From Bilabrum cf. latius (taxonomy: Eukaryota), in assembly GCA_965178125.1 (NCBI GenBank), contig OZ237741.1, positions 124,001-188,000 of the forward strand: a stretch of 64,000 nucleotides of DNA, written 5' to 3'. Positions 1,147 to 64,000 of this stretch are shown here, piece after piece (the first letter of the stretch is position 1; each line of letters begins with the position of its first letter). The position numbers and the translations under genes are program-made. The notes under the pieces are model-generated. The model worked only from the letters and a program-made list of their open reading frames with translations, searched no databases and was not told where the DNA came from.

Positions 1147-4100
1147 ATGTAGGGTATTTAGACACGACATCACGGTGAGTTTTCTGCAGCCCAAACCCTT
1201 GCTGTACCGGTGCTCTGGCGTTTCGAAATGAATGTCGCTCTACCTTTGTTCTGCATATCGCCGCCCGTTTGTTCGTTTCATGCTTGGTAAATTCGGCTGT
1301 CAAATGTATTGCTCTTTTAGAGGTTTTCCATCCCGTTGCAGAGCTGGAGGATGACATAGATGACCAGGACTTGAATCGTGATAGCGCCGAGTTTACATCG
1401 ACGGCAACAGATCATATTCTACACAATGGCACGGACGGAGTCAGCAGCAATGCGGACATTATTGATGTTCACATGGACAGTCTTATCCCCAAAGGGGTAA
1501 CACCACCCAGAGTAGCTCGGAGACGGCCGCCTGCGCAAGGGAGAGGCATTGAGAACGCCCCCCCAGCACGATTGGATGCAGCGCCAAGCATGCACGAGCG
1601 GCGAGCGAGAAAAGACGTGGGTCCCCGCCAGGCTCTGCGATCTCCAACGGGAGGATTGCGTGTTCCCTCCCTCGTGCCAGGCAAGGAGCGGCCCGGCGGG
1701 CGTCTCAGCATTGCGGACCTCGAGCGGAATCGTCACGAGGTGAGCAGGGACTTTTGTGTGCGCGCGTGCGCCGTTTGTCGGTCGCCCAGCAGATGGGCGC
1801 CACCCCAATTGAGCCTCTGGAGCGCCAAGCGCCTCCTGCCTCCACCGCAATGCACCTCGAAGCATGTCAACTCGCTACGTTCGCACTGCACTGCACTGCA
1901 CTGCACTGAACCCTCGCAGAGATCCGCGCACGCCGCCCAGCAGTCCAAGACGGAGACCGAGCACCGGAGGCAGCAGCGGGCCAGGGCCAGGGAACTGAGG
2001 AGGCAGGCACTGCAGTACGGGGCCGCGCGCTCGCAGCAGCAGCGCCGCGCCTACCAGCGGAAACAGGCCATGCGGCAGGCCATGGAAGCACAGGCCAGGG
2101 CGGCCCTGGGCCAGAGTGCCGTGATGCCAGAGGTGGCTCTGCATGCCCATGCCCATGACCATGACCATGACCATGACCATGACCATGCTGAAGGCGGGAA
2201 TGCCAGCGATCATCACGATGCGCTGGGACCTAATCATCGGGACCACCGTGGGCATGGGCACACGCCACCACGGGTGCGAGCATCCGACCAGGCGCCAGGG
2301 AACAACGAGGGCAGCCCTGATCGCGGGTCTGTCAGCAGAGCCACCTCGCGGCAGACAACCCCGGGGAAGCCTGTACACGGGCTTGGCACGATAGGAGGGG
2401 GGGGCACGGGGGGCAGCATTGACGGCGCACCAGGTCCCCTGGAGCACACGCTTGGGCACCCGCACGCGAGGGGCTTGCAGGTGAGGCATGGTGCGAGCGG
2501 TGTCGACACGAGTAGACCCGCCGAGCAGGAGGGCGAGGAGGGGCAGGAGCCCCTCCCCCTCCTTGCGACTATGCGGCCGTCTGCGTCCTCTTTCGCACCG
2601 TCATCGGCTGTGGAGGCAGAGGCAGCGAGCGCCGCGGTGGGACAGGCTCTCCGTGGACTGGCTGCCACCGCGAGACCCCGAGATGGGGGCAGGCAGGGAA
2701 GTGCCAGCAGTAGTCGGGGCAGGGGCCGGGGCAGATCCCACACGATGCACCCTACGAGGCTCGCAAGGGGCCCGCACACCACCAGCACTGGCAGCCTGGG
2801 GAGGAGGTCGGCGGGGCGCCGCAGCTCGGGCGGCAGGCGGGGCAGCATTCCAGACGTGCGGTCCTCTGTTGACCTCGCCGAGGCCCCCGCTGGAGCGGGC
2901 CACATCCGGATCCAGCTGCAGCCCGTGGGGCTGGGTGGGACACTGGACCCGCCTGCTCCGCTCGCCGACGAGGAACTCGACAGGCTGCTGGCGGAGGCTG
3001 GCATGGGCATGGGGCCAGAGACAGACAAGAAGGGCCCCGGCGGGGGCAGGAGGGGTCCTCAAGTGGCGGCCAGCAGCTTGCTGGGGGCACCGGGCAAGGG
3101 AGGCGGCAGCGGCGCGACCGCCGGATCCTCGGGATCTGCGGTGGCTGCGGGGAGTCGAGGTGGTGCATCCGAGGCCAGTGGGGGAGGCGACAGCGGCGGG
3201 TACAGCGACGAGGAATTCGAAGCGGAGGAGGACGGCGGAGGAACTGCGGGGGGTGCTGGTGGCGCCGATGCTACCGCTACCTCTGCTGTTACTGCACGTG
3301 ATCGTGATCGTGGACTCGCTGCGACAGGTGCTCGTGAATCCAAGGAGCAGGAGGAGGATAAGCAGGGCAGCGAAGATACGACCGGCGGTGCGCCCGGACC
3401 ATCCGCTGGTCGGCCCAAGCCCGAACCAAGATCAAGGTCGAGGGCAAAGCCCAGACCAAAGGTCAGGATCCGCGCGACTGGTGGCAACCGGGCCCTCGGC
3501 TCGCCCAGCCAATCGCAGCGAGCCCCCGCCACCCCCGCCACCCCCGCCACCCCAGGGAGCCGGCTCACTGCCGGAGAGAGGCTCCGGGGCGCCCCTCTCA
3601 AGGCATACATGGAGGCCAAGCGCAAGCAGCTCGCCAGGGAACAGCACCAGAAGAAGGCCAAAGAGGCGAAGGACAGGCGGAAGCGGGAGCTGGCTCTCAG
3701 GAAGCTGCGGGAGGAGGCCCTCAAGCGGGCACCGGCTGCCCCCGTACCGAAGCCAGCCACCAGGACCAGGGCACCGAGGGCTGCGGGCAAGGGCAAGGGG
3801 AAGCGGCCGGGGCGCAGGCGGAGGGCCAGCGGGAGCGGCAAGGGCACGACAGCCGGCACGAGGCCTCGCAGCCGTGCCGCCCGGGGGCGCCAAACCCGGG
3901 GGTTTCCACATGAGGAGGGCAAGCAGGGCGACTCCCCGAGACCTTCTTCTGGTGCATCGCATGCAGGTGCAGGTGTGGCTGCCCCTCCTGCCAGCGAGGA
4001 GGCCCTGGGAGCTGACCTAGACCTTGGCATGCAGGCAGGTGCTCCTCGTCTCGCTACCCCTCCAGACACGCCCGGCCGGGACCTCCCCTCTGAGGAGGTG

Positions 4101-13409: not shown

Positions 13410-16373
13410 TCAGTTGGACGTGACCATCAAGTTGTCGAAGCCGGACGTCTCGAAGCCGCTGCCGAGCAGCACGAGCCCCGAGGGCACAGTCGTGTCGAAG
13501 TGGCCCAGGCTAGCCCCGCTCACCTCTGGTGACACCTTGGTGCCCTCGAATGTCAGCTTCAGGTGCATCCAGGTCCCTTGCAGGCCGCCTGCCCCGCTGG
13601 GCAGCTCCGCTGCAACACTACTTGCTGCTGGGCCGGGCAGGCTCCCGCTCGCGATGACCGTGGGCCCCTTCTGCCCGAAATCCTCCAGTCTCCAGTCGGA
13701 GGTGGAGTTGACCGTGAGGCAGACGGCCGTCTTGTAGCCCTAGAAGCCGTTGAGGCTCTGCACCCGCCCGCACAGGCGAACAAAAGACTCAGGCATGGGT
13801 GTCCCCAGGCATTGGGTGCCACCTCCCGCCAGGCTCCTGATCTGCCCGTGCTCGTTCACGTCCCACTGCTGGGAGGGGGGCAGCGGGGCCCCGCACGTGG
13901 AGAGGATCGTCTGCGTGGAGGATCCCTCGGGAGCGACGGTGAGGCAGTTCCCGTGCAAGAGTCCCCTGATGCCCTTGTCCTCGGGGTCGTAGGTGAACTG
14001 CAGGCCCTTGTAGCAGTCGGCCCCGCAGCAGGTGGCGCCTTGGGTGAGGCATGTGTACGTGATGATCGGAGCCAGGCACCCGTCCGAGTTCATGCAGGTC
14101 AGCGTCGCCTCGTTCTGCAGGTACAGGGGCCCGCCCTCCGTCCCGTTCTTCCAGGTCTGGTACGGAGAACCGCCCTGCACACAGGGGGCTAGGACCACGG
14201 CTCCGGGGCTGTCCCGTAGGGCCCCCTGCGCGGCCTCCCCGGATCGCTTCACATCCATGTCGCCGTACGTGGGGTAGGCAGCGCTCTCTGGCGCACCCGC
14301 CGTGGCACTCACGTCCACGGATCCAGCGGCTCCACGGCCGGTGCTGGATTCGAAGATGCCCTCGAGGTGCGGGTGCGCCACCAGGTAGTCCCCCGGGGAC
14401 TTTGTTCCCTGGGCACGGGACACAGCACTGGCCAGGCGACGGCGGCTCGCGTCCGCGCGGCGGGCCTCTAGCCCCCGCGCAGCGCGCAGATGGGTGGAGG
14501 AGGAGGAGGAGGAGTCGAGGCTTGCATCAAAGCGTGCATTCGCTCCACCCGCGGGCAGAAAGGCGTCGACCTCCACGGTGTAGTCGCTCCAGAATGAGGC
14601 GTTCAGCCCCCCCACAATGGTGGCGGGAGTGGATGCATGTGCCCACCCGTTGCGGCCGGGCCCCTTGGGCAGGACCTGCACCAGGGCCGGGTTGCTGCCA
14701 CCCACGCTTCCCCTGCCAGATGGGCCGCCAGCGGGCGCGCTTGCCGACGGCAGGATGTCCTCGTGGATCTCGAACACGCCGTACTGGTCCGAGATGTACT
14801 TGGGGATCAGCGTGTTGTTCGTGCCGGCCCCTCCCCCAGGGCTAGAGAAATCCTCGGTGTAGGGGATGGGGAATGGGGCGGAGGCCGGCGGCGGGCTGGG
14901 CACTGTTCCCTTCCGCTGGCCCTCCTGGTTGCTGACCGTGTACATGGCGTCAGGGAACACCGTCAGGTTGAAGGTGGCGCCCTGCCCGCCGGGAAGCTGC
15001 ACGGTTTTCACGTCGGGCATCCGCACGAACTGCGCCTGCTCCGTTGTTCTCCACACTGCGAGGGAAGCCCCCCCCGAGCTGCCCGGCATGCCTGGCGCCA
15101 GAACGACTTGCACCTGCTGCGTGGCCTTGGCCTGCACAGAGGCCTCGCACCGCCCACCGCTCGTTAGGGACTCCACCACGAAAGCGAACTTGTCCGAAGC
15201 TTGGTCGTACAGCGTGATGTAGGCCCCTCCCCCTTGCAGCGTACCAGACCCGGGGGCCCCAAGTGCGGCCAGCTCGAGAGCTGCCTGCACGCTGGCCTTG
15301 GGCCCGAGCTTTGCTTTGGCACGGGCGATGGCATCTGGGTTTGGCGCCGCGCCCAGAAAGCGGAACCCTGGCTGCGCGAATTGCGCGATGTGCGCCGATG
15401 TCCACAGCGGCGCATCCACGTCGTAGTGGTTGCTCCAGGGCTCCATGGCGCGAGTGAGCCCCGCGTGCTGGCAGACGAGGTTCTCGTAGACGGACCACAC
15501 GGTGGACCACGCGATCGTGGCTGTGTTGTTCATGCGCACGTAGTTCTCCACGAGCACCCGCCCCCAGTTGGGGCCGCCCACCCAGCCGGGGGCGTCGCTC
15601 GAGTAGTCCTCGGAGCTCCACTGCTGCAGCCCCGCGGCGGATATGGCAGGGTACGGCTCGTCGCACGGGTAGTGCGTCCCGGTGGCGTACAGCGCATCAC
15701 GGACGGTCTTGTTGCTGACGATCCCGGCAATCATCGCGCTGGGGACGTACTTATTGTCTGGCGCCACTATCTTGGTCGAGCTGTATCCTGCGTCGTCCAT
15801 GGCGCGGCGCAGCTCAACGATCCAGTCGAGCGGCTGAGGGACTCGCTCGTTCCACACGCCCATGTAGTCCACATCGATGCCGACGGTTTCTTTGACGCAA
15901 TTCAACCAGTCGATGTGGTACTTGATGCCATCATCGGAAAAGTATCCTGTCGAATTGTCACCTACCCAGGCTGGCACCGCCCACGATAACCCGTACGTGA
16001 GCACACTGGGGTTTCTCTTCTTTGCCTCGAGCATGAGCCAGTTTTCGTACCCCTTTGAACAGTCTATTTTTCCGCGAACGTCTTCAATGGAGGCTTCATC
16101 GCCATCCGTGCTTTGCCCGCTGCCGCCAATTTCCACCTTGCAGATATGAAGGTTTGCGCCGAAGTTAGGCTTGAAAAGATAGTCAAGCACTTCGGACCGC
16201 TGCGGCTCATCGTAATCCCACAGCAGCCTCGAGCTTGCACCAGCCGAAAGCCCACCGATCCCGTCAAACTTGTGCTGCACGTCATGCGTATCAAGCTCGA
16301 TGCGAGTTGTGTTCATCGCAGTTGCGACGACAAAACATCCTGTTGTGAATGCTACCAGGTTAATAGTGCGCAT
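13410..16373 (-). CDS. GALC: Galactocerebrosidase (GH59) with signal peptide and inserted ricin-B lectin; 1 in-frame TAG (13740)
   Basis: GH59 motifs 'FDGIGGLSAGASSRLLWDY..QRSEVLDYLFKPNFGANLHICKVEIGG..QSTDG', 'GVWNER', 'WSSEDYS'. The C-terminal 'GLVLLGSGFETSGFDNLMV' (cf. GALC 'AQFDNF') appears only after reading through TAG 13740-13742. Ends at TGA 13410-13412. Confidence 0.9.
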
Positions 16374-16508: not shown

Positions 16509-18089
16509 TCAGGTTGCACCCGCACCTCCCTCCAGGATCCCAACAAGCGCACTGATTTCTCCTGCTGGTGCTCCGCCCCCTCGTCCAACTCGCCCCGCCG
16601 CCGCCACCGCCTCCCGCGCGGCATCAGCAATCGAAGAGCTCACCCCCTTGACGCTATGACCCTCACCCTCCCCATCATCCTCCCCCGCCTCATGACCCGC
16701 GATTGCTCGTAGCACGCACGGACGATCCGATCCCGCATCGCCCGCTGTGCCCTTGACACCCCCCGCACCTGCCCCATCGCCACTCTATCCAACCAACCCA
16801 TCCACGCCCACGCCCCCGTCCCCTCCCACGGCCCCGTCCCCTCCCACGGCCAGCCAAGGGTGCTCCAGCAGCGAGGCCGCGCTCTCCCTCCGGGCCGGGT
16901 CCCAGCGGAGCAGCCTGCCCACAAAGTCACGCGCCTAGGGGGAGCATCTGGGCAGCAGCCGGTCCATAGGCGAGGAAGGGGTGTGCAAACCCGACGTGCT
17001 CGACACACCGGAGCAAGTGCTCGGGGCAGCTGCTCGCTCAAAATCGGCAGATCCAGACCCTGTGGCCTAAGCAGGAGTGGCTGCGTCTGGAGGTTTAGTA
17101 GATTCTGAACCCTCTCTTTCAGCGCCATCCCCGTCCCCAACCCCGTCCCCAACCCCGTCCCCACCCCCAACCCCACCCCCATCCGCTCCATCGGTGGAAG
17201 CCAGGCTAAGCCTGCCCCAGTCCCTGAGCGAGCTGAGCCCGGGCCCCACGTCGCGCGGGGGCGGACCCAGCCCTTTCTCTATCTCGCCCAGCTGTGCCAG
17301 GTCGCTCTCCCCAGGGAACAAGGGGGACCCTCCCTCGAGACACTCCCCCAGCAGGCAGCCAAGGGCCCAGAGGTCCACCCCGGCACCATACGAGCGAGAG
17401 CCCAGGAGCAGCTCCGGGGCGCGGTACCAGCGGGAGACCACGTGTGGCGTGAGGCACCCGGCCAGCGCGCTCGTCGCTGCATCGATGCCTGGGGCGGCAG
17501 GTGCTCGCTCTGGCTGACCAGCCTAGGAGGGCTCTCCGGTGGGAGCCGGAGCAGGCGGAGGTGTCGAGACAGACCTGGCCAAGCCAAAGTCAAGCAGGAC
17601 CGATATTCCAGACTTTGAATCAACGACCACATTGCTAGGCTTAACATCTCTGTGCAGCACGCTCGCGCGATGGCAGAATGCGAGTGCCTCGCACAGGTCT
17701 CGGGCAATCTCGCGTACGGCTCCTTCTGGAAGCAGATCGGAGCGACGGTGCACCAAATCGTGTAGATTTGGACCAGGGACGAAGTTCATGACGAGAACTA
17801 GGTCATCTGCGGGCGTTCTCATCGCTGCTTTCAATTCTGGCAGGGACCTTGGCAGCGAGGCCATGCCCAGGTTGCGCAAAGCCTTTAAGGCTTCGAGCTC
17901 CCGCCTTCCATCAATGGTCTCCGTCTGTAACCCCCCACGCTCGCCTTTGCGCTGGTAAACGCGCTTGATGGCAACCATAGTGCCATCATCGAGGGCTCCA
18001 GCGAATACCTCTCCGAATGAGCCACCGCCGAGCCTCTTCCCCAGTTTAATGCTTGCATAGCGGGGGCATTCAGCTGCAGACGTACTCAT
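16509..18089 (-). CDS. CDK20/CCRK-like Ser/Thr kinase; 4 in-frame TAGs (17523, 17067, 16935, 16785)
   Basis: [20 protein letters not shown] and DFGLAR come first. After a TAG: '[45 protein letters not shown]'. After further TAGs: '[23 protein letters not shown]'. Ends at TGA 16509-16511. Confidence 0.85.
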
Positions 18090-18489: not shown

Positions 18490-19602
18490 TCAGAACTTCA
18501 TGGCGTGGGGCTTGTCGCCCTTGGACAGGGTGAAGGCAGCCTTCAGGTAGTCCTTCATCTCCTCGCCGCCAGCGCCCTTGAAGGCGGGCAGGGCAAGGAT
18601 GGCGCCGTCCACGGCGGCCTGGGCGGCCTTGCGGGCCTCGGTCACGGTGCCGGCGGGGGCGTCCACAACCTCGGTGTCGAACTTCTCGGCCTCCTCGTCG
18701 TCCACGAACACGTCCTCCTCGTCGGCCCTGAAGAAGGCCTCCTCGCCGGAGCGCTGGGCGGCCTTGGCGGCGGCCTTGGCAGCCTTGTCCTTACCGAACC
18801 AGGCCTTCTCAGCGGCCTCGGACGAGGCGCACTCGGGCAGCTTGATGCCCTTGACGCCCTCGATCGAGGTCGAGGTGGCGATCACGTACCGCTGGTTCAC
18901 GCGGCGCAAAGGCACACCGTTCACGGAGAAGGGGCCTGCGAATGACAAGTGGGAGCAGCAGCGCACAAGGGTCCGAGCAGGTAAACGAGGCATGGTGAAG
19001 GAAGCGGTGCCGGAGCGATGCAGCAGCCTGCCCGTCGGTCAGACTGGTACTGCCGCAGGGAGCCCGCGCTAGCGTCAGTCCCTTAGATTTCATAAGCTGT
19101 ATATCATGTATTCGCTGTGGAAGTGAGCGGCCGGCTGCGCTCGCGAACGCGGTGGCTCCCCGAGACGAGAGTTGCAGCTTGCCTCCTCTCCGGCGGGACG
19201 CGGTCGGCGGCGCGACCCGGCCATCCCTGGAAAGCAGGCCGCATTGCAACTAGGCCGCTCAAGTCTAGGTAGCATCTTTCAAGCGGTTGGTATCGTCACT
19301 GGGATCAGCGGCTAGCAGTTGGCATCCGGCAGCCCTTGGGGGCGCCGTGAAGCTCTGCTCTTTCTCTCACCAGTCACAAGCAGGAGTCCAGAGGGAAGGA
19401 CACCAAGGCACACAACACGGCGGCCGCGGTTGCGCCCAGACAGCAGGATGAGAACCTTGCCGGCCTCGATGGAGGACCGGACCTTAGCGCCGGCCGGCTG
19501 GGGCCTGGAGCCGGTCTTCTTGGCCATCGCCCGGCGCGCAGAGCGCGGGACATCATCAGCGGGGTACCAAACGGGCTTTCGCTGCAAGTTAACCTTGGGC
19601 AT
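18490..19602 (-). CDS. RPL6: 60S ribosomal protein eL6 (2 exons: 19602-19371, 18935-18490)
   Basis: 'WYPADDV', '[53 protein letters not shown]', '[19 protein letters not shown]'. TGA stop; no TAG codons. Confidence 0.95.
18936..19370 (-). other. RPL6 intron (435 bp)
   Basis: ACTG|GTGAGA ... CATTCGCAG|GC restores the conserved VTGPF. Confidence 0.9.
19058..19160 (-). ncRNA. Candidate intronic box C/D snoRNA (weak)
   Basis: The minus strand reads ATCTAAGGG-A-CTGA: 9 nt complementary to conserved SSU rRNA CCCUUAGAU, followed by a D box. Flanked by near-complementary GGGAGCCACCGCG / CGCGGGCTCCC. No clean box C found. Confidence 0.3.
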
Positions 19603-19938
19603 GCTGCCTAGCTGCGACGAGATCGAGCGGTAACAGGTGCAAACAAGCAGTTGGCAACTGAAACTATGGTCTCTAGGCCTACTTTTTGAACAAACCAAAG
19701 CTACGCAAAGCATGGCGATTGTTGTAGGATCAATTCATAGAACGGTATCCGCAGACACGTTGAAAAGGACAAGCATAGCTCACAACCACGAAAATATACG
19801 CTTCGTCCCCTGACTGGTGTTCGATCCGATCAGAAATCTGTTTTGACCGCTCTTGCAATCATATAACGTTACATTATAATATGAACGTTCGTTTCGAGTT
19901 CGAATAGTTCCAACGATCAAATCACCAGCAAGGCCAAG
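19603..19938. promoter_or_regulatory. AT-rich divergent intergenic region (RPL6 / CFAP69), probable bidirectional promoter
   Basis: Head-to-head starts separated by 336 bp. AT-rich core with palindromic ATTATAAT between two AACGTT at ~19865-19889. Confidence 0.5.
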
Positions 19939-29300: not shown

Positions 29301-29911
29301 CGCTTGGTGGTGCGGCGGCGCCTCGCCGCGGGGGGGCCTCCCTCGGCGTCTGCCGCAGAGGGAGGCTGCGCGGATGCGGGGCTGCCAGCTGGCTCCGGCT
29401 GGCTCGAGGATGGGCTGAGGGCAGACCGTCCTCGCTTCGCGCCGATGCGGGCGGAAGTTAGCGGGCCATTACTAGCGTTCGGTTCGGTGACTGCAGTCCC
29501 GTCGGATTGAGCAGAGGAGCCCCTTTCTAGGGCAGATGCTCGCGATGATTCAACCCGCGCCTGCTGATCATCCGGGCCAGACTGCACAGCGCCCGCTCGG
29601 CCGCTTCCGCCGCCCTATCTATCGCTGCCAAGAAGCACCGCCCCGCTAGATCTCGCAATTGGTGCCTGTACGGCGCCTGCTATGCTTCCCTAGCCGGCTC
29701 CGCCCGGCTACCCATCCAACACTGCCTCTCTTGCCAGTGAACCAAGGGCTACGGTGCTGCCAGCGGCAGATGTCGCTGGAACGCTACAGGATGGAATTAC
29801 AGTATCGTCATCAGGGTGATCTTGCCCTGCCATTCGCGCTTCTAGCCGGCGCAGCGTCCCGGCTGCGTTCACTGGTTGAGATGAGGCCGCAATGCTACCT
29901 TGCCATGACAA
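26333..29911 (-). CDS. TLK: Tousled-like kinase (start uncertain); 9 in-frame TAGs
   Basis: N-terminal '[10 protein letters not shown]', coiled coil, '[28 protein letters not shown]...[12 protein letters not shown]', '[12 protein letters not shown]', 'VTDFGLSK', '[19 protein letters not shown]', '[32 protein letters not shown]', '[18 protein letters not shown]'. TAGs at 29708, 29690, 29615, 28142, 27809, 27575, 27320, 26981, 26531; TAA 26333-26335. Confidence 0.92.
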
Positions 29912-39934: not shown

Positions 39935-40097
39935 TGATAAATTAGAAAGTTGTAAAAATCTGTTTATGTCAACGGCAAGTGGATCGTCGCGAAAATCACG
40001 GCACGGTCGTGCTGCCTCTTCAAGTTGTCCCAGATTTTGCCGAGAACCTTGCGCATTTCCCGACCATACCGCGTCCAGTGCTCTTCGAATCAATACT
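39935..40097. promoter_or_regulatory. Short divergent intergenic region (aidB-like / GT54)
   Basis: 163 bp of AT-richer sequence between head-to-head ATGs. Confidence 0.45.
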
Positions 40098-44900: not shown

Positions 44901-45101
44901 GCGTTCGATGGTACGTCTTTCTTCTTGCCAAAGAATAGTACTACAGCAGATGATTGCGCCGGAACAAAATGCAGCGCGTTGAAGCTGCGTGCTAAATTTC
45001 GAGGTTTCATGTCGGGCTCGTTTCGATTGGCGCTCCTCCACACTATCGAGATCGCTGTCCTTGCGTCGCTCGCGCTTTCTTTGTGGTGAGCGGGAGCTCA
45101 T
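41940..45101 (-). CDS. TDP1: Tyrosyl-DNA phosphodiesterase 1-like (two HxK motifs) with C-terminal SIM/UIM-like motifs; 7 in-frame TAGs
   Basis: 'HHAKVLALRF..VRVVVTSANLYVDEWEQMLQTVWVQDFP'; second motif 'LLSHAKAI' between TAG 43359 and TAG 43290; 'WCLAGSHNLSKAAMG', 'LECSVLCPP'. TAA 41940-41942. Confidence 0.82.
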
Positions 45102-45315: not shown

Positions 45316-46840
45316 TCACACGCCCTCCAGCTTGAAGTTGCACGCCCGCCCGACCGCCTCGACGATCTTGTGCGCCTGCCCGCTGATATCCTGGTCCCCC
45401 AGGTCAAAGCTGACCGTGCTAACCACGCGGCGGCGCAGCTCCGCCGTGTCCGCCACGATGGCCGCCACCTCAAGCGCGGCGTTTTCGTCCGCGGCCCCGT
45501 CCCTGCCGTTTACCGCCAGGACGATCCTCGCATCGGACCCTGTCGCGTCCAGCTAGCCCACCAATCCCTGCAAAGCCTCCTTGGACTTGCGGTGGTGCTC
45601 AGGATCTCCAGCTGCAGCTGGTACCTCGCACACGAAGAACGCCACCACGTCCGTCCCGTCGAGGTAGTGCGGCCACAGACTGACGAGCCGATGCTGGCCG
45701 CTGACGTCCCACATAGCCAGCTCCCGGCCGTCGTGCTTGATCGTCTCCACGTTAAAGCCTGCAGAAACAGCAAAATGAGTAAATGCACAGAGAGAGAAAC
45801 ATCTTGGGTGTACCTGAAAATGCCCTGCCAGGCACGCGACTCCCTTCAGCTGAGCCGAGACCAACATGCGCAGGCAGTGGTGGCAAATCAACACAGCTTT
45901 GCCGTAGGGCGGCATGATGCGCGGTCTCATGGTAAGGCCACGGGTACTGGAGATCAAGAGTCTCAGTACCGGGTATCAATCTATTCTCACCTATCGTTGG
46001 GATCGTCACGACCTTTTCTCCCGTCTTTGCAGCGAACAGCGTGGTTGTCTTGCCCGTCTGGGACAGCCCTAGCAGGAGCACCCTCGTCTCGCTCTTGCCA
46101 GCGCCGTCTCCGTCTTCGTTTTTGTCGTCAGAATCGGAATCTGATTCAATCGCGGGATCCTCCGCGGCTTCTTCGGCGACTCCCTTTGCCCGCTCCAGGA
46201 ATTCTGCTCGGATGCTGTCGATGCCTTCAGCCTCAGGGGTCATCACCATCGAGATCGTGGCAATGACAGGCCGAGCCGAAAACGCTACGGGGCCTTTGTC
46301 CTCGTCATCGTCGCTGGAATCTTCGAGTGCTACGCCTAGCGCAAGGGTGGCCTTCGCGCGCAGCTCCCCGCGCTGCGCAATTGCGTCCTCAAGGCAGAGG
46401 GATCGCTCGGACTCATCGGGCAGGAGAACCTCAAGAACTTCATCGATGACCTCCTTCACCTTTGGTAGCTTCGGAAGCTCCGCATCCTAATCAAGATCCA
46501 GAAAGCCATCTGGCATTCCCGAACCCATGGCTTGGCGGAACGCTTGCCCAAACCGCCGCTTGGCTGTGCGTACTGCAGCTTTCAGCAAGGGACCATCTTC
46601 GCAGCCTGCTCGAATCCACTACTAGCATAATACAAACAGTTTTTTCGACGTTATTCCAAGGTCTTCCAGCAGTAAAGATGCCGCGCCAGTCGGGGAATCT
46701 TCCAGGAATCCATCGGGAAGCAGAGCAAGTCGGAGAGCCCTGGCTGGAATGCAGGCTTCAAGGAGTTTATAAGCAAACGCGTGGGACAGGGATACGCCTT
46801 TTGCTGAAGTCTCGACTGGGGCTCCTGCTACTGCGGCCAT
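45316..46840 (-). CDS. ARF-family GTPase domain with ~250-aa N-terminal extension (intron 45759-45990; 4 in-frame TAGs)
   Basis: 'RVLLLGLSQTGKTTTL..VVTIPTIG|FNVETI..MWDVSGQHRLVSLWPHY'; G4 degenerate (NGRD). TAGs at 46622 and 46619 (tandem), 46487, 45553; TGA 45316-45318. Confidence 0.78.
45759..45990 (-). other. Intron (232 bp)
   Basis: ATA G|GTGAGA ... TTTCTGCAG|GC TTT restores the ARF signature PTIGFNVE. Confidence 0.9.
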
Positions 46841-46987
46841 TTTGCTGATAAATCTACTGATACTAAAAGATCGGTCCCGGTCGGTTCTCGCCCGCACCAC
46901 AACAAACCGGAAATACGTGCGCCGAGATAAAACGGCAGCTCCGGCAAGTACTACTGGTAGTTCCATCTCATAAGCACCACCAGCCTA

Positions 46988-49711
46988 TCATGACTATAGC
47001 AGGCAAACGGCGTTTTGAGCTATAGACGCGAGCTAGCCGTCGTTGCTGTCCACCAACCGAGCAAAGGCGTCTTCCGCCGCGGCCTCTTTGGCCGCATGCT
47101 TGCCCTCAGCTGACATGTTCGCCAGATTGAACACCACAGCCCCCGCCACGGCCGCCACACAGGCGGGAATGAGACCGTCTTCATGCGTGCTGAGCAGCAG
47201 GACCAGTTCCGGTATGCTGCCCGCATCCACCACGGCCTTTCTCACCTCCTCCGGACCCCTGGCTAGATTCATAAGCACGCCGGCTCCTGTCTCTACCTCG
47301 ACCGGATCATTCGACCGCAGGAGCCGAAGCACGCTGGGCAGTGATCCCGTGCTCACGATGGCTCGCTGCATCGAAGACACGCCTTCCATGGACCCGCCGC
47401 ACCGAAAGGAGCCGTCCTTCACTTCCTCCTGCACCCCGCCTGTCGCCCCGCTGAGGAGCAGCCTGATCACTCGCACTATGTGCTGGTCCTTATCCTCTAT
47501 CGCCTCTAGGGTCCTGATCGCGGCGGGCACCAGACCGGCCTTGATTGCATCGATGGCCAGCTGCTCCGATGCGCACATGGACCTGAGCAAGAGCATCACC
47601 ACCTGGGTCTGATTCCTCCCAGAGCACGACTGCAGCAGATCAATGTACTTGGGCAGCGCTCCTTCCGAGGCTGCCTGCTCCATGCCGGCTCGGTTGTTTT
47701 TGCACACCGCGGTGAGGGCCTCGTGCACTGTTTGCTGCAGCTGTGTCCCCTCCGCATGCGTGCCCAGCAGCCGTACCAACCGTGGAATAGCTCCAGCTTG
47801 CATTGCTGCTTTCTGCATAGAAGACGAGTCAGTTGTGGCTGCTACAACGCCAGTTGCAGCCCACGACACCATGACAGCGGACTGGGAGCCCAAAAGGTCG
47901 ACGAGGCCAGCGATGACCCCGGCCTCCAGTGCCGCCTGCTTCAACGCATCCGATACTTGCAGTATTCTAACGCATGCCATGGCAGACCTCTAGGCTGCGT
48001 TGTTCACGCCTGTCCTCATGCAGGCAACGAACCTTGGCAGCGCTCCCGCGTTCACCACCGCAGTTGCGAGGGTCCTACCTCCATTGGATACGTTCAGCAG
48101 AGCACCGACGGCTTGCTCCACCAGTACCTGGTCCTTTGCATCGCACAGATGCACTAGGATAGGAAGCGCACCGGCATCGACGACCGCCTGCTTGGTTGCA
48201 GTGGCATCTGGAGGTCCGCTGCAGATCCCCGTGATGGCCCCCGCGGCGTCGAGCATCTCGGCTACGTCTTCAGTTCGAAGCATTGATACGAGGCTTGGCA
48301 GCACACCCGCCTGCACAGCAGCTTCTGCGAGCTCGTCCGATTCCTACGCTATATGCATGAGGATGATCGCGACCGTTCCGCGGATTTCCTTCTATTCCGA
48401 CCGCAGCAGCTGGGCAAGCACTGGCAACGCGCCGGCCTCTACCGCAGGTGTACCGACCTTGCCCGGGCAGAGGCACAGTTCGTACATCAGGCAGCAAGAC
48501 TGATCCACAGCGAAGTCGTCTTTGCATCGCATCATCTCAATGCAGCGCACTAGCACGTTGGCAGGGTCACCAAGCACTGCGCCCAGCGAGCGGCCGTCCG
48601 CATGGCCGGACGCGAGCGCCTTGATGGCAGCAATGGCGCACCTCGATTCCTCCCCGCGCTCCTCGCTAGAGCCGACCATGCCCAAAAGCAGACCCAGCAT
48701 CCCTGCCTCTAGGAATTTATCCTTGAAGTCAGCTGCGATCTTCATCATGTCGCAGGCCAACATAGCAGCCCAAGTCTTCCTCGTCTTCTGTGGCAGCATC
48801 ATCACCGTCGGGGGCAGCTCGATCTTTACGGGCGGGTCCCGCAGCATGGACTTGATGGCGGGAATGCAGCCCGCGATCACTGCGTCTCGAGGAGCATCCG
48901 CGGAGCACCGAAAGATCTGCACGAATAGAGGCACGGTATACTTGACCATGGTAGGGGAGGTGCACCTAAGCGCGCCAGCAAGCGGAGGCAGCACGCCCGC
49001 CCGGTACACCTCGAGGGCCCGGCCGCTCTCGCAGACCAGGTCGCGGAGTGTCATGGCCGCGCTTGCCAGTACTTCCGTGTCTTCTGATTGCATGAGCTTC
49101 ACGAGCCCTGGAATGGCCCCCTCCTTCACGGCCAGGTCCTGCAGCGGGCCGCGCTCGCAGACCAGGGCGCTCAGAGCAACCGCCGCAAGAGATGCCTCGC
49201 AGGCATCACTCGATTCCAGCATATGAGTAAGGAAGCGTACTGCGTCCCCATTGGCCCGGCGGGATCTGAAGGGCTCTTCGTAGATGAGATTTGCGATCGC
49301 ATCCACCGCAGCCAACGGCCTGAACATGCCCCCCGCCCCTTGCAAGGAGACAATCATTTGCTCGTACACCGATGGGTCTGCTTCGCAGCGTTCCCTTATT
49401 CGGCCACGTAGCATCTGCTAAATCATTGCCATGTTCTCGTCGATGTTTGTGCATTGGCCTGTCATCTCCGTTGCAATTCGTGCTGCTTCGAGAATGTTGG
49501 GTAAATCCCCGCTTTCGAGGCACGCACTGGCTATTTCGAGTGCATGCGAAAGCTTATCGTCCTGATTTAAGCTACTGGCGTTCTGAATCGCTTTGAACTG
49601 CTCCGTGATTGTTCTTGGGTCGGCTACAGGACTGCATCCGCTCGATCGACCCGTGGATCCCTGTACCGTGGGATCTATTTTCTCAGGCTGCTCGCCGGAT
49701 GCTGCTGCCAT
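46988..49711 (-). CDS. Armadillo-repeat protein (~907 aa); 6 in-frame TAGs
   Basis: Repeated 'VDAGALPILVHL', 'EGAIPGLVKLM', 'QAGAIPRLVRLL', 'DAGSIPELVLLL'. Four track ORFs in one frame split at TAG (49418, 48392, 48344, 47990, 47033, 46994); TGA 46988-46990. Confidence 0.85.
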
Positions 49712-49874: not shown

Positions 49875-52800
49875 TCAAGAGTCATTGGGGACTTCCTCGT
49901 CCCCCCTAGCGTACGCATCCGCCTCAGCTGTGGCCAGCAGCGGCTCCAGCTTGTCCTTGTCCATCCCCTGACCGATCCCGTTCGCCACGAGAGCCCTCAA
50001 ATGCCTCGGCGGGAACCTGCTCCTGTTCGCCTGCACCCACGGCAGCACGTCCTTCTGCGACGAAAAGTAGAACGCCTGGATGTACAGGTCCACGTGCTCC
50101 TTCCCTCTGGGCATGCACCCCTGAAGCAGAGGCCCCGCCCGCCTCACCGCGGCATACACCTGGGAGGCATCCAGCGCCATGAGGCCCCTGCCCTCCACGG
50201 TGCAGCTGCCCACGCGGGACACGCCTTCCACGAAGCGGTCCATGAAGTGCGCTGTCACGCAGCCCCACACCCCCGCCCACGACTTGGCCGGCATGGCCAT
50301 GGGGAACAAAGACCGGAACTGGTCGTAGGCCTTGCGCTGGGCGGCAGCAGCCTGGGCAGCGGCCCCCGCGGCTCCACCGCGCCGCGTGGGCGTCCCAGCC
50401 GCCGAGGAAGACCCGCCGCCCGTGCCCGCAGCACCGCCTCCCGCACCGCCGCTGGGCGCGGGCCCGTGGGCAGCCGCCCGCAGCAGCAGCCCCTGCTGGG
50501 CCAGCGAGCCCCCGATCCTGCTCGTGTACTTGCTGGCCCGGGATATGTCCCGGACCTCCTTCCACTTGAGGCCGGCCACCAGGCCAGGCAGTTCCCCAGC
50601 CACGGGGGTGGCCACAGGCACAAAGGAGTGGTACACGAGTCCCTGCAGCTCCACCGCCGCACTCGTCACCTCGGTCGCGTACTCATCCACGGACTCTGTC
50701 CTGGCGGGCGGCAGGGCGCCCCGCACCAGCGCCAGCGCGCTGCCTAGCACCTCCAGCACAAAGTCGAGGCTTTCCACCGCGACACACCGGGGCACGATAC
50801 CCGGCGCCTGGTCGGGAGACCGCAGATCCACTCCCTTGACGTCGACCAGCCGTGGGAGGAAACCACCCGCTGCCTGGGGCCCCGCGGCCTCCCCCGCGGC
50901 CCCGCTCGCGGCCATCTGCGCGTCCCTGCCGCCGCTCGCCGCCTTGGCTTTGGCAGCTTCCTCCGCGGCCACAGCCGCCTCCCTGGATGCCTGTGCCCCC
51001 AGCTGGCCGCCCTGCATGAGCTCGAGTGCCACCCGCTTCAGGTGCACCCGGAGCGTCTGGTACGGATCGTGCCACGGGTCCCTCCGGCGGTGCCTGGCGA
51101 GGACGAGCCCCAGCCCGCCGCAGCGAGCCAGATCAGCGTCCCTCACCTCCCCGGTGGTGCCCAACCCCCCAACAGTGCCGCCGGCACCCTTCCCTCGAAA
51201 CTTGGACCCCGCCCCATCCACGCTCCCCAGTGCCAGCTCCCTGGCCGCCGCCACGGCCGCCCTCCTCCCCAGCCTGGAGGCCAGCTCGGGGGGAACTTCG
51301 TCGATGAAATCGAAGGCGTTGGGCTCGCGCGTGCGGCGCTCCTCTACGCGGCGGGGGCCGCCGGACCATGTGACGAGTGTGCGGAGCGCCCCCGTGTGCA
51401 GAAAGTTGGTCGCAACCACGTAGAGGTAGGCGTCCACCAGCTGGGTCAGCCTGCGCCACGCGTCCGAAGCGGCCTGGGGCATCGACTCGATGAGGCCGAC
51501 GTACACGGCCGCGGGACGCGCGATGCCATTCAGACCGGTCTGTGTCACGGTAGGGCTGCCCAGCTTGCGGAGGACCCACTCGTCCAGCGACTTGGCCGCC
51601 TTGGCGCTGGCAGCCACCTCCGAGGTGGCGCTAGCACCCGCCGCCCCGCCCATGGCACCGACGGAGCCCGCCCCCGCCCCGCTGCCCGCCCCCGGCCCCT
51701 CGTCGTCGCTGGACTCGGCCTCGCTGAGAATCTCCTCGTCGTCCTCATCGTCCTCGTCACCCACCCCGCCTGCTCCCCCGGACTGGCCCCGGACACTCCC
51801 CGACAGTCCCCGCCGCATGGGGCTTGAAGGGGTGGGCGAGCCCAGCGGGGTGCCCAGTCCCTCCATGTCTTCGTCCCCGCTGTCCCCGCCGCCCTCGCCC
51901 ATGTGCCGCATGGACCTAGAGCGAAGCAGCAGGGCAGGGGGGTTCACGGAAGCACCGGCACCCGCGCCCGCAGCGCCGTCCCCGTCTCCAGACTCGCCCA
52001 AAGACGAGGGAGGTGCAGACCCCGGGCCCAGATCCAGAACACTCGCCCGCGCTGCCGCACCGCCCGACGCGCTCCCATCCCCCAGAGCGGCCCTCTGCCT
52101 CTCCATCCACTGTTCCCTGGCACGGATCGCCCTGGCCTCGAGCACCTCCGCCTCCCCGTCGATGTCCCCGTCGCACCACTCCCCGAACGGATTGCCCTAC
52201 GACCAGCCGTGCGCGGGCCCGCCCGCCTCCGACACACCGCCAAGATCCAGCCCGTCTCCGTCCGATCCCGGCTGGAACCCGTGCGAGCCACCCAGCAGCG
52301 AGGCCGCCCGCCCGCGGCCGCCCCCGCGCCCACCGCCCACGCCACCGCCGGACGTGGCCCGACCCCTCCCCAGGCTGCCCCTGCCCTTACCCGCCCCTGT
52401 TCCCTGCTGCTGCTGCTGCCCCGCCCCGCGCGCCAGCAGCAGCGCCTCCTCCGCTGTCGCCTCGGAGGGGACGTCGGACCCGTCGTGCGCGTACCATGTC
52501 GCAAACACCCGGCCCAGCCGCCCCGTCCCCACGGCCGCCACCCCGTCGTGGTCCCCTGGCCGCACCGAGTCCCCTCGGATGCTCACAGCGCTACCCTCCT
52601 CCCCCACGCCAGCCACCTCGGCCGCCGCCGCCACCGCCGAAGCGGTCCTGCGCAGGCGCCTCCGCAAGGCACGGGTGGGCAAACCGGCGAGCAGGGAAGG
52701 TCCCTGTTCCCCCGCGGGGTGCTGTCCCTCTCCGGCCCCGCCTTGGTCCTCGGCGGCACCCGTCATGAGTGCCCTGGCGGCTTGGTCCTCGGAGCTGCCC

Positions 52801-55800
52801 GGCTGCGCCAGCATGACCCGGCCGTGGGTGCCCGTGCCGCCTCCAAATGACCCCATCCTCCGCATCTCCCGGAGTCGCGCCACCAGCCGCTTCCCTCGGC
52901 CCACCCCCAGCGCCGACTCGGCCCCTCCTCGGATGGAGGCCAGCACGCCCCTCAGCGCATCGGGAGGGGCCGGCACCGCGATCCACGGCTCCTTGGCCAG
53001 CAGCTGCCTGAGCTTGCGCGAGTGCACCGCGTGGACCGAGTCGACCAGGGACTGGCACAGCAGGCGCGCACCGGTGCGCAGGCTGTCTGCATGCGTGTAC
53101 CTGCCCTGCGAGGGCCACCACTTCCTCGGGACGAACGTTCCTTCGCTTGTTCCCTGAAGCTCCCCGTCCTCGTCACTGGTCTTGTCCTCGTCGCCCGCGC
53201 CGGCCCCACTCCCAGCTGTTCCCCCGCCCGCAGCACCAGCGCTTCCGCCCTCGCGCGCGATGCCCTCTGGTCGGATCGAAGTAAACTCGGCTCCCACCGC
53301 GCACAGGTCCCTGGCCATTGCAATGCAGTGCACTACGTCCCAGACGTGCGTGGCCGTGGTCTCGCCCAGCCCCTCGCAGCCCATGGTCAGCACAGTGGAG
53401 GCCCTGGACTGCGCCTGCCTCCACAGCGCCGAACGAGCCCGCATGAGCTCGCTCAGGCCCTCCCTCACCTGGGTGGCTGCGGTCCTCACCAGACCCTCGC
53501 GCATCGCGCTGGATTCCTGCAGCAGCTCCTCCTCGACGGGCCTGCCGTTGGGACCCAGGATGCCCCCCACCGCGCTGTGCTTCTTGCTCCCTCCCATGAA
53601 CCCGGCGGCCGCCGCCACTGCCGCCACGGCCGACTGCCTGCGCCCGGGGGACCCGCTGCCCCTGGGGCTCCAGGACTCGCCCTCTCCCGCCCCCTCTGGC
53701 AGGTCGGATGGGTCGGGGAGCTGCCGCAGGTGCCTCCAGGCGTCCTCCTCGGGCCTGTCACTGCCCCCGTGCAGCCACGCCACCACCTGTCTCTCGGCCG
53801 CCAGCCGCGCCTCCTGCTCCGCCTTGAGCTCCTCCTCGGTGGGACCGTCTTCGTCCTCGTCCTCGTCCTCGTCTTGGCCAGGGGTCGAGCCTCCGCTCTC
53901 CGATGCGGGGGCGAGGAGGAGCAGCTTGTCCGCGTTCGCGTGCCAGCGCATCAGCAGCACGTGCAGCCGGAGGGCATCGATCACGGCGGCGCACACCCGC
54001 ATGAAAGCTGGCATGATCTGCGGCCCCTAGAGCTGCCTGCAGAGCGCATCGAACCGCTGCGTCATGTGCTCGTTGCGACTGCTCCTGTACCTGCTGACCT
54101 GCCTCTTGTCTGCCTTGTGCTCGGGGGCCGAGAGGAGTTGCACCTCGGAGGGAACCAGCGCACCTGGGCCCGCGGTCGTCGCATGCCCCTCCCCGTGCTC
54201 CTCCTTCGTCTCTGCCTCCTCTGCCCCATCCTCTAGGTCTTTCCGCTCCTCCTCTTGCGCCTTCTAAGCGGCCAGCAGCCCCTCCATGGCCTGCTCTGCC
54301 CGCCTCTCTCGCTCCCTCACTCGCAGCAGAGCGGCCATCGCAGCCCTCCTCTCTGCCGTCAGCAGCACGTCCACCACGGCTTCCTTTGTGGAGGCCTTCA
54401 TCGACCGCAGCACGGCGGCGAGCACACGCTGCGGAAGCTGTGCCAGGCTCGACTTGGCCGCCGTTGTTCCCTGGGCCGCGGCCAGGAGGCCCTGTCCCTT
54501 GGAGCCCCCCACGGTGGGGGCACCCCCTAGCGCAGCGGTAGCCGCGCCCCCGTCGCCCCCTCCCAGCCCCAGCTGGGACGCAACAGCAGCCTCCAACGCG
54601 CCTGGGAGGGCAGCCGCCTCGCCGAGGGCACCCCCCGACGCGCCTACACCCCCGGGCATGTGGTCCCCAGCTGACCCGGGGCCGCTGGCGGTACCCACGG
54701 CCCCCTCAAGTGCGGAACCTGCCCGCAGGCGCCGCAGCCTGCCGCCCCCGTCATCGCCGTCGCCAGCACCGCCCGCCGCCCCGCTGGTCCCGGCCTCCCC
54801 CGCGCCCATGCCCATTCGGAGTGCGGCCACAGCGGCGGCGCGCGCCTCCTCGGCGCCACTCGCCCCGGCCACGCCGCCCTCCTCGTCCGCAGCACCGTCC
54901 GCCAGCTGATTTGCGACCAAGTCTGGGTCCTCGAGCGCGTTCCCCGGCGCCACCCCGTGCTTGTCCAGCACGGCATAGGCCCGCACCACCGAGGCATAGT
55001 CCCCCGCGAGAGACAGCACGCCGTCGGGGAACTGCCTGCAGAGCGTGTCCAGCGCCTGGTCCGCCCGCATGCGCACCACAAGGAGCGCGGCGCCTCCCTG
55101 CAGTCTCTTCCTGACGGGTGTGAGGGCCTCGATCTCGCGGTAGGACCGGTGGTCAGCAAGGGCCTGCCTGCTCTTGATGGCCTCCACCGCCGCGGCGAAG
55201 CAGCCGCCGGTGCAGAGACGGCCCGCCTCTGCCTCCACCCCCGACAGCCGCTGCACCTGCCGCACCCGCTCGCACAGTGCCCTGAGCCTGTCCTGCCGGC
55301 GGCGGCGCCTCGTCATGCCGAGAGCGCCGGAGACCAGGCCCTCCCTGGAGCCACGCAGCCGGCGGAGGACGTTCTTGACGTGCACCACGGTGCGACTCAC
55401 TTCAAGGTCAATGTCTTGGACCATTCGGCCACCGCGGAGGAACACGTCCTGCTTCTGCATGACTGCTCGCTCCAATCGAGAGCGCACCGCGTCGCGCGCC
55501 ATGTCGCTCGTCGCCTGCTCGTTCACGATGAAGGAAGCCTGCTGCCCAGGGTCCCCTGGAAGACGAGTCTGCGATACGTGGAAAGCGCTTTAGTGTCGAT
55601 CTAATGGCGCGTTACAATGTTCTGTGTGCGCCAGATTTTGGTACGTCTATGCTCGATGGATCCTGCGCCGCGGACCGGGCATCCACGAAGCCCGCAACGC
55701 CTTGAGCAGCATAAACAAAAACACTCACAAGTAAATTCTTCACAGGATCAAAATCTTCATCAAAATAGCTCTTATCAAGCATCTCGAACGCTTGCTTTGG

Positions 55801-62300: not shown

Positions 62301-64000
62301 CGCTGGGCGGGTACTACCCTGGGCATCGATGCAGCCCCACGCTCCGCCAATGCGCTCACCGGCTGGTCCCCCTCGGACTTGGGCCCTGCCACCTGCCCGC
62401 CCCCGTCCCACCACTCGCCCGCCTGTCTCCTCTGCTCTGTCCCAGTGAGGTGCCCCAGCACCCCCGGGGCCACTCCCGCCTCTCTCGCCCGCCTGCCCAC
62501 CTCTTCTCGCAGAGCTCCTTCCAGGCTTACGGCCATGTCGGCGGCCAGCTGCAGCAGATACCCGGGGTGCGAGTCCACTCCCACGGTCACCGGAGGCAAG
62601 TCACCTGCCCCTGCACCGGCACCTGCACCTGACCCTGACCCTGCACCTGCACTCGCCAACTCTTTGTCCTATTCCCCACTCTCTGCTTGCTTCTCCGCCT
62701 GATCTTTCAGATACCGCTCGCTTCCACGCTCTGGCTGTCCAAACTGCACCTCATACCGGTAGATGCAGTCATGGTCGAACAGCCCGCCGACCCCTCGGTC
62801 TGGGTACCCCTGCACGATGGCGCGCAGGACGGCCAGCCGAGCACTGGAGTCCTCTCGGTCCGCTGCCCCGTCCACGAATCCTCGGCCTGTGGCGGTGTCC
62901 TTCCCCGTCAGCGTGTCACCGTTGGTCAGTGTCCTCACGAATGCGAAGCGGCGGCGGGCGTCCCCCTCGGATCCGGGGCCAGAGGCCGCATTCTCGGCCG
63001 ACTGCACCTGCGCTGCCCGTATGACCTCTTGCTCGGTCACGGAGCTCTCCCAGACGGTCTCCAGCGCCTCCAAGTCGGGCGGGATCACCCGTGCTTGTCC
63101 TGGCCGCAGGGGGTGGGGGCCGACAGCTGGGAGGGCACCGGCGGTGGGCCGGCCCTGGTGGATCCGCAGAGAGGAGCGCACGCTTGCCAGCAGCGCGCAC
63201 TGACGGTCCCACCAACGATTGCTCTCCGCGCGAAAGTGAGACACATCGGATCCAGTGGCATCTTCCTGGGCCGGTTCTGCAGCTACCAGTGCCGCGACTA
63301 GTGCCGAGTACTCCTTCATCGTGCGCAGGCGGTACCGAGCTGGAATCACGTTCGACTCCAGCACATAGCACGCGTCAAGATTTTCTAGAGCATCGGGACT
63401 GTCTCTGCACGCAGCCTTCGTACGGCGCATTTGTGGCAGCGATAGCTCTGGAGGCGGTGCTCGATACCCCGACCGCGCAGTCTAAAAGAACAGAAAGTAA
63501 GGGCCCGTGCTCGTCTACCTACACTTGTCAATCTACTCAAGGCACAAATTGATTGTTTGGTGATTCGCAGTGGCTTCATTCCGTATGCCCCAGCGCATGT
63601 CGCACAACAAAACGGTGAGACCCAGCGATCTTGCGGCTCTTGACAGGTAGGGCTCGACTAGCTCCATCATCGCGTGCCGTTCGCTTTTGGTGTCCACAAA
63701 CGTACTCGATGAGAATATTCGTACTACGTTCGTTGTCGGAGACGTAACGTTAGAGGCTCGTTTGCCCGCTAACCACTCTTGCGAAGCGACCGTGGTGTCC
63801 GATGCATCGGGACTGAGACCCGAATCCCGCGCCTATTGGCGCTTTTCTCGCAAGCGCTGACGAGCTTCTTCAATGGCGTGAACCCATAGTGGATCATCAA
63901 TACTATCTGGGATGCGAGCAACTCGCATGCTGCAAAGATATGCGTTGCCCTTCGGGGAAGCTTCCCCTTGTGAAACCGGAAGAACCGTCCGAAACCGCCG
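56360..64000 (-). CDS. DUF4062-NACHT/STAND NTPase-WD40 protein (NWD1/NWD2/TEP1-like), 5' end may lie outside the window; 13 in-frame TAGs
   Basis: 'VRIFSSSTFVDTKSERHAMM..CDMRWGIRNEATANHQTINLCLE*IDKCR*TSTGPYF', 'SSVTEQEV', Walker A 'GPGGTGKS', Walker B 'VLIVDSVDQL', 'LSLDDELLERVYQYHHPPTRRLP', and multiple WD40 repeats (e.g. 'LQGHGYTITGV..VTSSGDASCRLW'). TGA 56360-56362. Confidence 0.85.

Follow-up and report, generated by a model that had tools for sequence, protein, structure and literature searches.

Evidence for a nuclear genetic code in a GC-rich eukaryote in which UAG alone serves as a sense codon, most likely for glutamine

Only a handful of nuclear lineages are listed, in the excerpted text of PMC11687900, as assigning different meanings to UAG and UAA, and each new case is a test of the way in which one stop codon is captured while its near-twin continues to terminate translation. 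UAG specifies leucine in an uncultured rhizarian, glutamine in Iotanema spirale and in Protocruzia tuzeti, and serine in Scotinosphaera; it has also been uncoupled from UAA among the phyllopharyngean ciliates (once as leucine and twice as glutamine) and in the ciliate PL0344, which reads UAA as lysine and UAG as glutamate (PMC11687900). The same excerpt gives UAA as the stop codon that ciliates favour. Other described codes carry all three stop codons in frame, within essential and transcribed genes, and suppressor transfer RNAs (tRNAs) have been proposed to explain them; one organism with all three stop codons in frame, Amoebophrya sp. ex Karlodinium veneficum (Amoebophrya sp. Kv), has a far higher AT content than its relatives (PMC12005148, likewise cited from an excerpt). 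Here we describe a 64,000-nucleotide stretch of contig OZ237741.1 from Bilabrum cf. latius (assembly GCA_965178125.1, positions 124,001 to 188,000), hereafter 'the window', whose protein-coding genes are interrupted by numerous in-frame TAG codons.

The guanine plus cytosine (GC) content of the window ranges from 59.5 to 71.8% across 4-kb windows and is about 66% overall. Searches of Pfam and PDB revealed closely packed eukaryotic nuclear genes on both strands, and 14 proteins were compared with Pfam, of which 12 contained a recognised domain. We consider it probable that this is the nuclear DNA of a GC-rich, compact and intron-poor eukaryote in whose cytoplasmic translation UAG is a sense codon, most likely for glutamine, with UGA serving as the main stop codon and UAA also used. 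In effect, the code is most likely that of NCBI translation table 15. That UAG alone has been reassigned in the nuclear genes of a GC-rich eukaryote is well supported, and the same claim made by a first-pass annotation of this DNA is upheld by three lines of evidence described below, namely domain homology that continues through TAG codons, spliced RNA-like contigs, and a 67%-identical ortholog that carries TAGs of its own. That annotation did not assign UAG to a particular amino acid.

When TAG is treated as a stop codon (table 11), the genes are fragmented and the longest open reading frame (ORF) that begins with ATG encodes 1018 amino acids; the best such piece of the largest ORF, G1, reaches only 891. 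Treating TAG as sense instead yields uninterrupted ORFs of 3905, 2522, 1875, 1719, 1714 and 1166 amino acids, which are ended by TGA or TAA only. Fifteen long ORFs with a combined 18,764 codons contain 81 in-frame TAGs and no in-frame TAA or TGA, although these zeros are partly a matter of construction because the ORFs were defined by those two stops, which lessens their weight. In their two off-frames, by contrast, these ORFs contain 563 TGA, 192 TAG and 56 TAA codons, and at the off-frame rate approximately 280 in-frame TGAs would be expected where none is seen. Given that the off-frames are so rich in TGA, ORFs of this length that lack TGA and TAA cannot be a product of chance.

One more TAG, in the second exon of an Arf-like GTPase gene, brings the total to 82, and these are carried by 14 of the 16 gene models (about 18,800 codons). 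The two models that lack TAG are a partial ORF at 2-874 and the two-exon gene for ribosomal protein eL6. Thirteen models end with TGA and three with TAA. The earlier tally of about 90 TAGs in 15 of 17 genes, with 14 TGA and three TAA termini, is thereby lowered slightly, and the discrepancy reflects only the choice of start codons and gene models. At approximately 4.3 per 1000 codons, TAG is used about as often as CAA (100 codons), and TAGs are evenly distributed along the genes (12, 8, 12, 9, 4, 8, 5, 7, 9 and 7 in successive deciles).

Homology to known proteins continues without a break across many of these codons. The structure of human TLK2 (5o0y, 6.3e-100) aligns without gaps through TAGs 564, 675, 753 and 1101 of a tousled-like kinase (TLK) encoded in the window, and the surroundings of the TAGs of this gene at 28142, 27809, 27575 and 26531 are conserved and can be aligned. 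Likewise, two CDK/MAPK structures align through TAG 385 of a second protein kinase (G3), and the alignment of an NWD1-like protein (G14) with 12 NWD1 homologs continues across its TAGs 132, 138 and 149. An Arf-like GTPase domain also spans TAGs. In the gene for an AidB-like acyl-CoA dehydrogenase, the match to the AidB N-domain begins directly after a TAG, and there is no ATG between the two, which places this TAG inside the coding sequence. A separate search for homologs of the NWD1-like protein among shorter proteins returned one 122-residue, 97%-identical fragment only, which was uninformative for the TAGs. For the armadillo-repeat gene (G12), the only alignment shown was to a designed repeat protein in which the TAGs face asparagine and serine, and it was not used.

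The TLK also led to a second species. Its best match in a library of 1.84 billion proteins is a 507-residue ORF fragment (P0133, 69% identical) whose source is a metagenome contig of 2702 bp with 61% GC, designated L001. Over the longer alignment, 465 of 696 residues of the L001 and window TLKs are identical (67%). The L001 reading frame runs on 5' of the fragment through two TAGs, one of which lies in the conserved context 'RIADEQ-TAG-SQFARRPVLHDRYLL', and it ends at a TAA after 'KLSGK', as does the window TLK. Because the ortholog has in-frame TAGs of its own, the code is common to a clade of at least two species rather than peculiar to one strain. There are no alignable TAG positions that the two TLKs have in common, which is consistent with CAG, CAA and TAG replacing one another freely as synonyms.

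No convincing in-frame TAG was found in the other metagenome TLK loci, with the exception of L027, a locus of 32% GC (match 279-1007) that carries many TAA and TAG codons in frame, a ciliate-type pattern in which both UAR codons (UAA and UAG) are sense. Single stops in the high-scoring segment pairs of L009, L022, L024, L021, L025, L051 and others were considered as signs of recoding and rejected, since they fall at segment edges or in weak alignments and are probably introns. Two more distant TLK relatives, L037 and L042 (56% and 48% GC), have best segments that are 67-71% identical to the P0133 fragment and 72.7% and 68.75% identical, respectively, to the window TLK. Their kinase domains are divided over several exons, and the aligned exons include no in-frame TAG.

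Contigs from sequencing runs provide a further view of the same DNA. A run search yielded seven runs, all of them contig sets, four of which (X1-X4) represent one sample, cover the whole stretch and may have supplied the assembly itself. The other three come from two different studies, X5 and X7 from P2 and X6 from P3. Run contigs were compared over 26001-46000, where the DNA run X1 provides a single spanning contig, and where X5, X6 and X7 provide gene-sized contigs that show no differing letters and no gaps relative to the window. Two GT..AG introns are skipped in the gene-sized contigs and not in X1, and the acceptor of a third is the point where pieces from X6 and X7 stop (Table 1). On the basis of these splice joints, we infer that X5-X7 are RNA-derived. 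The automatic labels of the runs weaken this view, as they read only 'RNA?', with X5 given as 'probably DNA', and none of the runs listed is on record as RNA.

The interval 26001-46000 contains 35 TAGs, and the matches listed cover 24 of them without a difference (24 by X5, 8 by X6 and 12 by X7). Since TAGs persist unchanged in spliced contigs from other studies, they are evidently not assembly errors, and they are neither edited nor spliced out; the three artefacts that had been flagged for checking were thus not seen at any of these 24 sites. The general proposal that the TAGs are never translated, because they are assembly errors, are edited in RNA to CAG, or mark introns or pseudogenes, has no result in its favour, beyond the point that X1, with its spanning contig, may have supplied the assembly itself. 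We regard this proposal as extremely improbable. Identical letters appear in contigs of two other studies that are spliced only elsewhere, homology is unbroken across TAGs, the same pattern recurs in a second species, and gene decay or mutation resembling repeat-induced point mutation would yield TAA and TGA as well, neither of which occurs in frame.

A more serious concern is that UAG might be ambiguous, being read as sense within genes while serving as a context-dependent terminator for some of them, as in Condylostoma, karyorelicts, Blastocrithidia and Amoebophrya sp. Kv. Context-dependent codes do exist (PMC12005148, excerpt), and a sample of 16 genes is small, which counts against a firm statement that UAG never terminates. 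Moreover, the end of the armadillo-repeat gene (46985-46996, minus strand) reads '...CTA TAG TCA TGA TAG', such that TAGs flank the TGA stop two codons to its 5' side and directly to its 3' side. On the other side of the question, a TAG terminator is needed by none of the 16 models, a count taken from this small sample and from ORFs that were extended through TAG by construction. TAGs are not depleted toward 3' ends, and both the C-terminus of the TLK and its TAA stop are conserved in L001. Among the matches listed, X5 contigs extend past the terminal TGA or TAA by 5 to 82 nt in four consecutive genes (G7 to G10), a weak hint that these codons mark true gene ends, with the caveat that a contig may end where its RNA does not. 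Overall, we judge an ambiguous UAG to be improbable and favour a code in which UAG is sense throughout.

If UAG is a sense codon, which amino acid does it specify? The most direct evidence is from the two TLKs. TAGs 564, 675 and 753 of the window gene lie opposite glutamine in L001 (CAA, CAG and CAA, respectively), or three of four alignable positions; two further TAGs fall in low-complexity inserts that cannot be aligned. Calibration on the same pair reveals that glutamine is retained at 20 of 37 window glutamines and glutamate at 32 of 43 window glutamates, with only one of the 43 glutamates replaced by glutamine. Thus, the match of TAG to glutamine at three of four sites would be unusual if UAG specified glutamate. 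Summed over six partner residues, the log-likelihoods are -11.9 for glutamine, -18.3 for tryptophan, -19.4 for lysine, -20.2 for glutamate and -21.5 for leucine. Glutamine is preferred over glutamate by 8.3 log units when all six sites are used and by 6.4 with the five strict sites.

Wider alignments were assembled for three genes (150 TLKs, 120 homologs of the trefoil-domain protein G7 and 12 NWD1 homologs). Nine columns with at least half occupancy were used, and six further columns were skipped. The summed log-odds are +3.29 for glutamine, +1.11 for arginine, -0.42 for glutamate, -3.9 for asparagine, -7.9 for serine and -13.1 for leucine. In addition, the closest homolog of the trefoil-domain protein (67% identical) has glutamine at TAG 133. 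One TAG also occurs within a (GGACAG)n repeat of the TLK gene that encodes glycine and glutamine, at a place where the other units carry CAG.

Several observations weigh against glutamine and have to be set beside this evidence. The fourth alignable TLK site, TAG 1101, faces arginine in L001, and the two TAGs of L001 face glutamate (GAG) and leucine (CTC) in the window. In the NWD1-like protein, the column of TAG 132 is glutamate in 12 of 12 homologs and that of TAG 149 is leucine in 10 of 12. Human TLK2 has glutamate opposite TAGs 675 and 753, both kinases compared with G3 have glutamate opposite TAG 385, and the closest homologs of the trefoil-domain protein have serine at TAG 309. Finally, a test based on neighbouring residues scores glutamine at -15.4 and its best candidate, aspartate, at +5.1, and this test separates amino acids poorly.

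These data are the main argument for the proposal that UAG is sense but specifies a different amino acid, with glutamate the first candidate, followed by arginine (second in the column sum), leucine and serine. Codes with UAG as glutamate, leucine or serine are known from other lineages (PMC11687900, excerpt). Against this proposal stand the preference of the ortholog pair, in which glutamate so rarely gives way to glutamine, and the column sums, which are negative for glutamate, serine and leucine and positive for glutamine. Accordingly, we consider a meaning other than glutamine unlikely. Provided that UAG is sense, alignments of the encoded proteins make glutamine the best-supported meaning and, in our view, a probable one, with glutamate left a small share and all remaining amino acids together a share of similar size.

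A reassignment to glutamine could be explained by changes in a tRNA and in the release factor. Decoding would be accomplished by a glutamine tRNA whose anticodon has been altered from CUG to CUA. Such an anticodon would pair with UAG and not with UAA, leaving UAA free to remain a stop codon; that one would not expect a CUA anticodon to read UAA agrees with the excerpted discussion in PMC11687900. The release factor eRF1 would have become inefficient at UAG while retaining its recognition of UAA and UGA. Once this state had been reached, CAG, CAA and TAG could interchange by drift as synonymous codons. No tRNA gene was detected in the 64-kb window by ARAGORN, no Rfam family matched it, and the eRF1 gene is not located there.

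Table 1. Gene models, repeat, introns and matching run contigs, with positions as numbered in the 64-kb window
Feature	Position	Strand	Remarks
G0, 3' part of a gene	2..874	+	No in-frame TAG; TGA stop; no Pfam match
G1, low-complexity ORF, 3905 codons	1473..13190	+	14 TAG (first 4146, last 10995); TAA stop
G2, glycosyl hydrolase family 59 with ricin-type lectin domain	13410..16373	-	PF02057, 9.3e-85; 1 TAG (13740-13742); TGA stop
G3, CDK/MAPK-like protein kinase	16509..18089	-	4 TAG, one (16935-16937) in the conserved C-lobe; TGA stop
eL6 ribosomal protein, two exons	18490..19713	-	No TAG in coding parts; TGA stop
G4, CFAP69-like	20366..25510	+	PF21049, 4.4e-14; 2 TAG; TGA stop
G5, tousled-like kinase (TLK)	26333..29833	-	9 TAG; TAA stop at a C-terminus matching that of the L001 ortholog
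(GGACAG)n Gly-Gln hexamer repeat	27307..27334	-	One unit is GGATAG, with TAG at 27320-27322
Intron, 113 nt, GT..AG	29863..29975	-	Upstream of the TLK start codon; skipped in X5, X6 and X7, not in X1
Intron, 103 nt, GT..AG	30521..30623	+	Skipped in X5 and X6; absent as a joint from X1
G6, 1719-codon ORF	31010..36169	+	No Pfam match; 7 TAG; TGA stop
G7, secreted-type protein with trefoil domain	36260..37579	-	3 TAG; TGA stop
X5 contig over G7	36232-37566		All 3 TAGs covered
G8, AidB-like acyl-CoA dehydrogenase	37799..39934	-	3 TAG within the N-terminal 85 codons; TGA stop
X5 contig over G8	37794-39949		
G9, MGAT4-like glycosyltransferase	40095..41735	+	Weak Pfam match, below cut-off; 6 TAG; TGA stop
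X5 and X6 contigs over G9			All 6 TAGs covered
G10, Tdp1-like	41940..45101	-	7 TAG; TAA stop
X5 contig over G10	41889-45136		All 7 TAGs covered
G11, Arf-like GTPase, two exons	45316..46966	-	4 TAG, including one in exon 2 at 45553-45555; TGA stop 45316-45318
G11 intron, GT..AG	about 45759-45990	-	X6 and X7 pieces end at the acceptor, 45760
G12, armadillo-repeat protein	46988..49711	-	6 TAG; TGA stop
G13, syndetin/Vps54-like	49875..55502	-	3 TAG; TGA stop
G14, NWD1-like, with DUF4062, NACHT-type ATPase and WD40 repeats, 2522 amino acids	56360..63928	-	13 TAG; TGA stop

Most genes in the window consist of a single exon, and these extend up to 11.7 kb (Table 1). Introns are few and short, measuring 103 to 232 nt, and are bounded by GT..AG. 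Two lie 5' of a start codon, one for each gene of the divergent pair formed by TLK and G6, and that on the G6 side is probably within the 5' untranslated region of this gene. Packing is very tight in the interval 36232-45136, where the contigs listed for adjacent genes are separated by 93 bp in a head-to-head arrangement (39949/40042) and by 72 bp in a tail-to-tail arrangement (41817/41889).

Some of the models deserve individual comment. The G1 ORF has a GC content of 0.73, 0.58 and 0.73 at the three codon positions, which is like that of the other genes in the window. It is the least certain model, as it lies outside both the Pfam scan and the stretch compared with run contigs. An ORF with two TAGs at 19939-20484 (plus strand), which is upstream of the CFAP69-like ORF and overlaps it in another frame, may be the first exon of that gene. 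The kinase domain of the TLK is interrupted by long inserts rich in glycine, serine and alanine (residues about 755-968 and 1006-1042) that human TLK2 does not have; such inserts are present in L001 as well, but they cannot be aligned. The first exon of the Arf-like GTPase gene carries a tandem TAG-TAG at 46619-46624 (minus strand) in the context 'LFVLC-TAG-TAG-WIRAG'. A PDB search with the Tdp1-like protein returned no match. Among its named relatives, the NWD1-like protein is best matched by NWD1 proteins of animals, a surprising affinity for a protist.

Only hints bear on the affiliation of the organism. The named relatives of single genes are limited to Didymoeca costata (a choanoflagellate) and Phalansterium solitarium (an amoebozoan flagellate) for the trefoil-domain protein, the plant Ilex paraguariensis for the TLK, and sea urchin and lizards for the NWD1-like protein, and these are too few and too distant for placement. 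Comparison of eL6 with ribosomes in PDB gave no lineage signal, and a protein-atlas query with P0001 yielded no clusters other than bacterial 'hypothetical' ones below 0.9, and hence no taxonomic lead. The first-pass annotation had called the organism a flagellate, and in this regard the CFAP69-like gene hints at flagella. The gene content of the window presumably sets it apart from anaerobic fornicates and from AT-rich ciliates. We therefore view the organism as unlike either group, a judgement made from composition, gene content and the general features of those groups, and not from a tree.

With these caveats in mind, we lean slightly towards an independent origin of UAG as a glutamine codon in a GC-rich, aerobic, flagellated clade that is distinct from ciliates, fornicates, rhizarians and green algae, and that includes at least two species, the two TLKs being 67% identical. 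If this is true, the change arose in a genome with UGA as its main stop codon, and without the AT pressure and the UAA preference of the known cases. A UAG-only code of the glutamine type has precedents, and what may be undescribed so far is a GC-rich, UGA-dominant example. Our literature search found no description of a GC-rich non-ciliate with UAG-only reassignment, in a body of text that did not extend to supplements or most subscription journals, such that a prior description is possible. The finding would gain in interest if phylogenomics supports an independent origin. Given that the case is represented by genomic DNA, by apparent RNA data and by a relative from the environment, this organism could become a system in which to study the pairing of a tRNA(CUA) with its eRF1 and the sequence of events. 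There is also a practical consequence, in that gene calling with the standard code will break up the majority of genes in this genome and in those of its relatives, and annotation and databases need table 15 for them.

Comparison with codes described previously helps to define what is familiar and what is distinct about this locus. Glutamine is the meaning of TAG in crAss-like and other phages that use code 15 (PMC9523058, excerpt), whereas the window holds spliced eukaryotic nuclear genes. The code of table 6, in which both UAR codons specify glutamine (ciliates, diplomonads and some green algae), was considered and rejected because no in-frame TAA occurs in the 18,764 codons; the TLK at L027 has both codons. 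Blastocrithidia nonstop and Amoebophrya sp. ex Karlodinium veneficum resemble the present case in having in-frame stop codons in transcribed genes (PMC12005148, excerpt). Unlike these all-three-stop codes (table 31 type), only TAG is found in frame here, with no TGA and no TAA. Amoebophrya sp. Kv was also considered as the source of the DNA and rejected, being AT-rich and having every one of the three stops in frame.

Closer parallels are provided by lineages in which UAG has been separated from UAA, although several give UAG another amino acid. The oligohymenophorean ciliate PL0344 likewise gives the two codons different meanings (excerpts of PMC10553269 and PMC11687900). In the window, UAA never occurs in frame and ends three genes, and glutamate is less well supported than glutamine. 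The green alga Scotinosphaera is a precedent for a UAG-only change in a non-ciliate (PMC11687900), but serine has a strongly negative column sum here and appears only at TAG 309 of the trefoil-domain protein. The rhizarian and the one phyllopharyngean lineage in which UAG specifies leucine (table 16 type) also have UAG uncoupled from UAA. In contrast to their code, leucine is disfavoured here by both the column sum and the ortholog pair, and is found at only one of nine columns and one L001 site.

The closest agreement is with the group formed by Iotanema spirale, Protocruzia tuzeti and two phyllopharyngean lineages, in which UAG alone is sense and specifies glutamine while UAA and UGA remain stops. 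The window shares this arrangement, with glutamine as the most likely meaning, and as in that group, UAG is not depleted near gene ends (PMC11687900, as far as its excerpt extends). It differs from the ciliates of this group in being approximately 66% GC and in using UGA as its main stop codon (13 of 16 genes), whereas UAA is preferred in ciliates. It differs from the group more broadly in its long multi-gene contigs and its aerobic-type acyl-CoA dehydrogenase.

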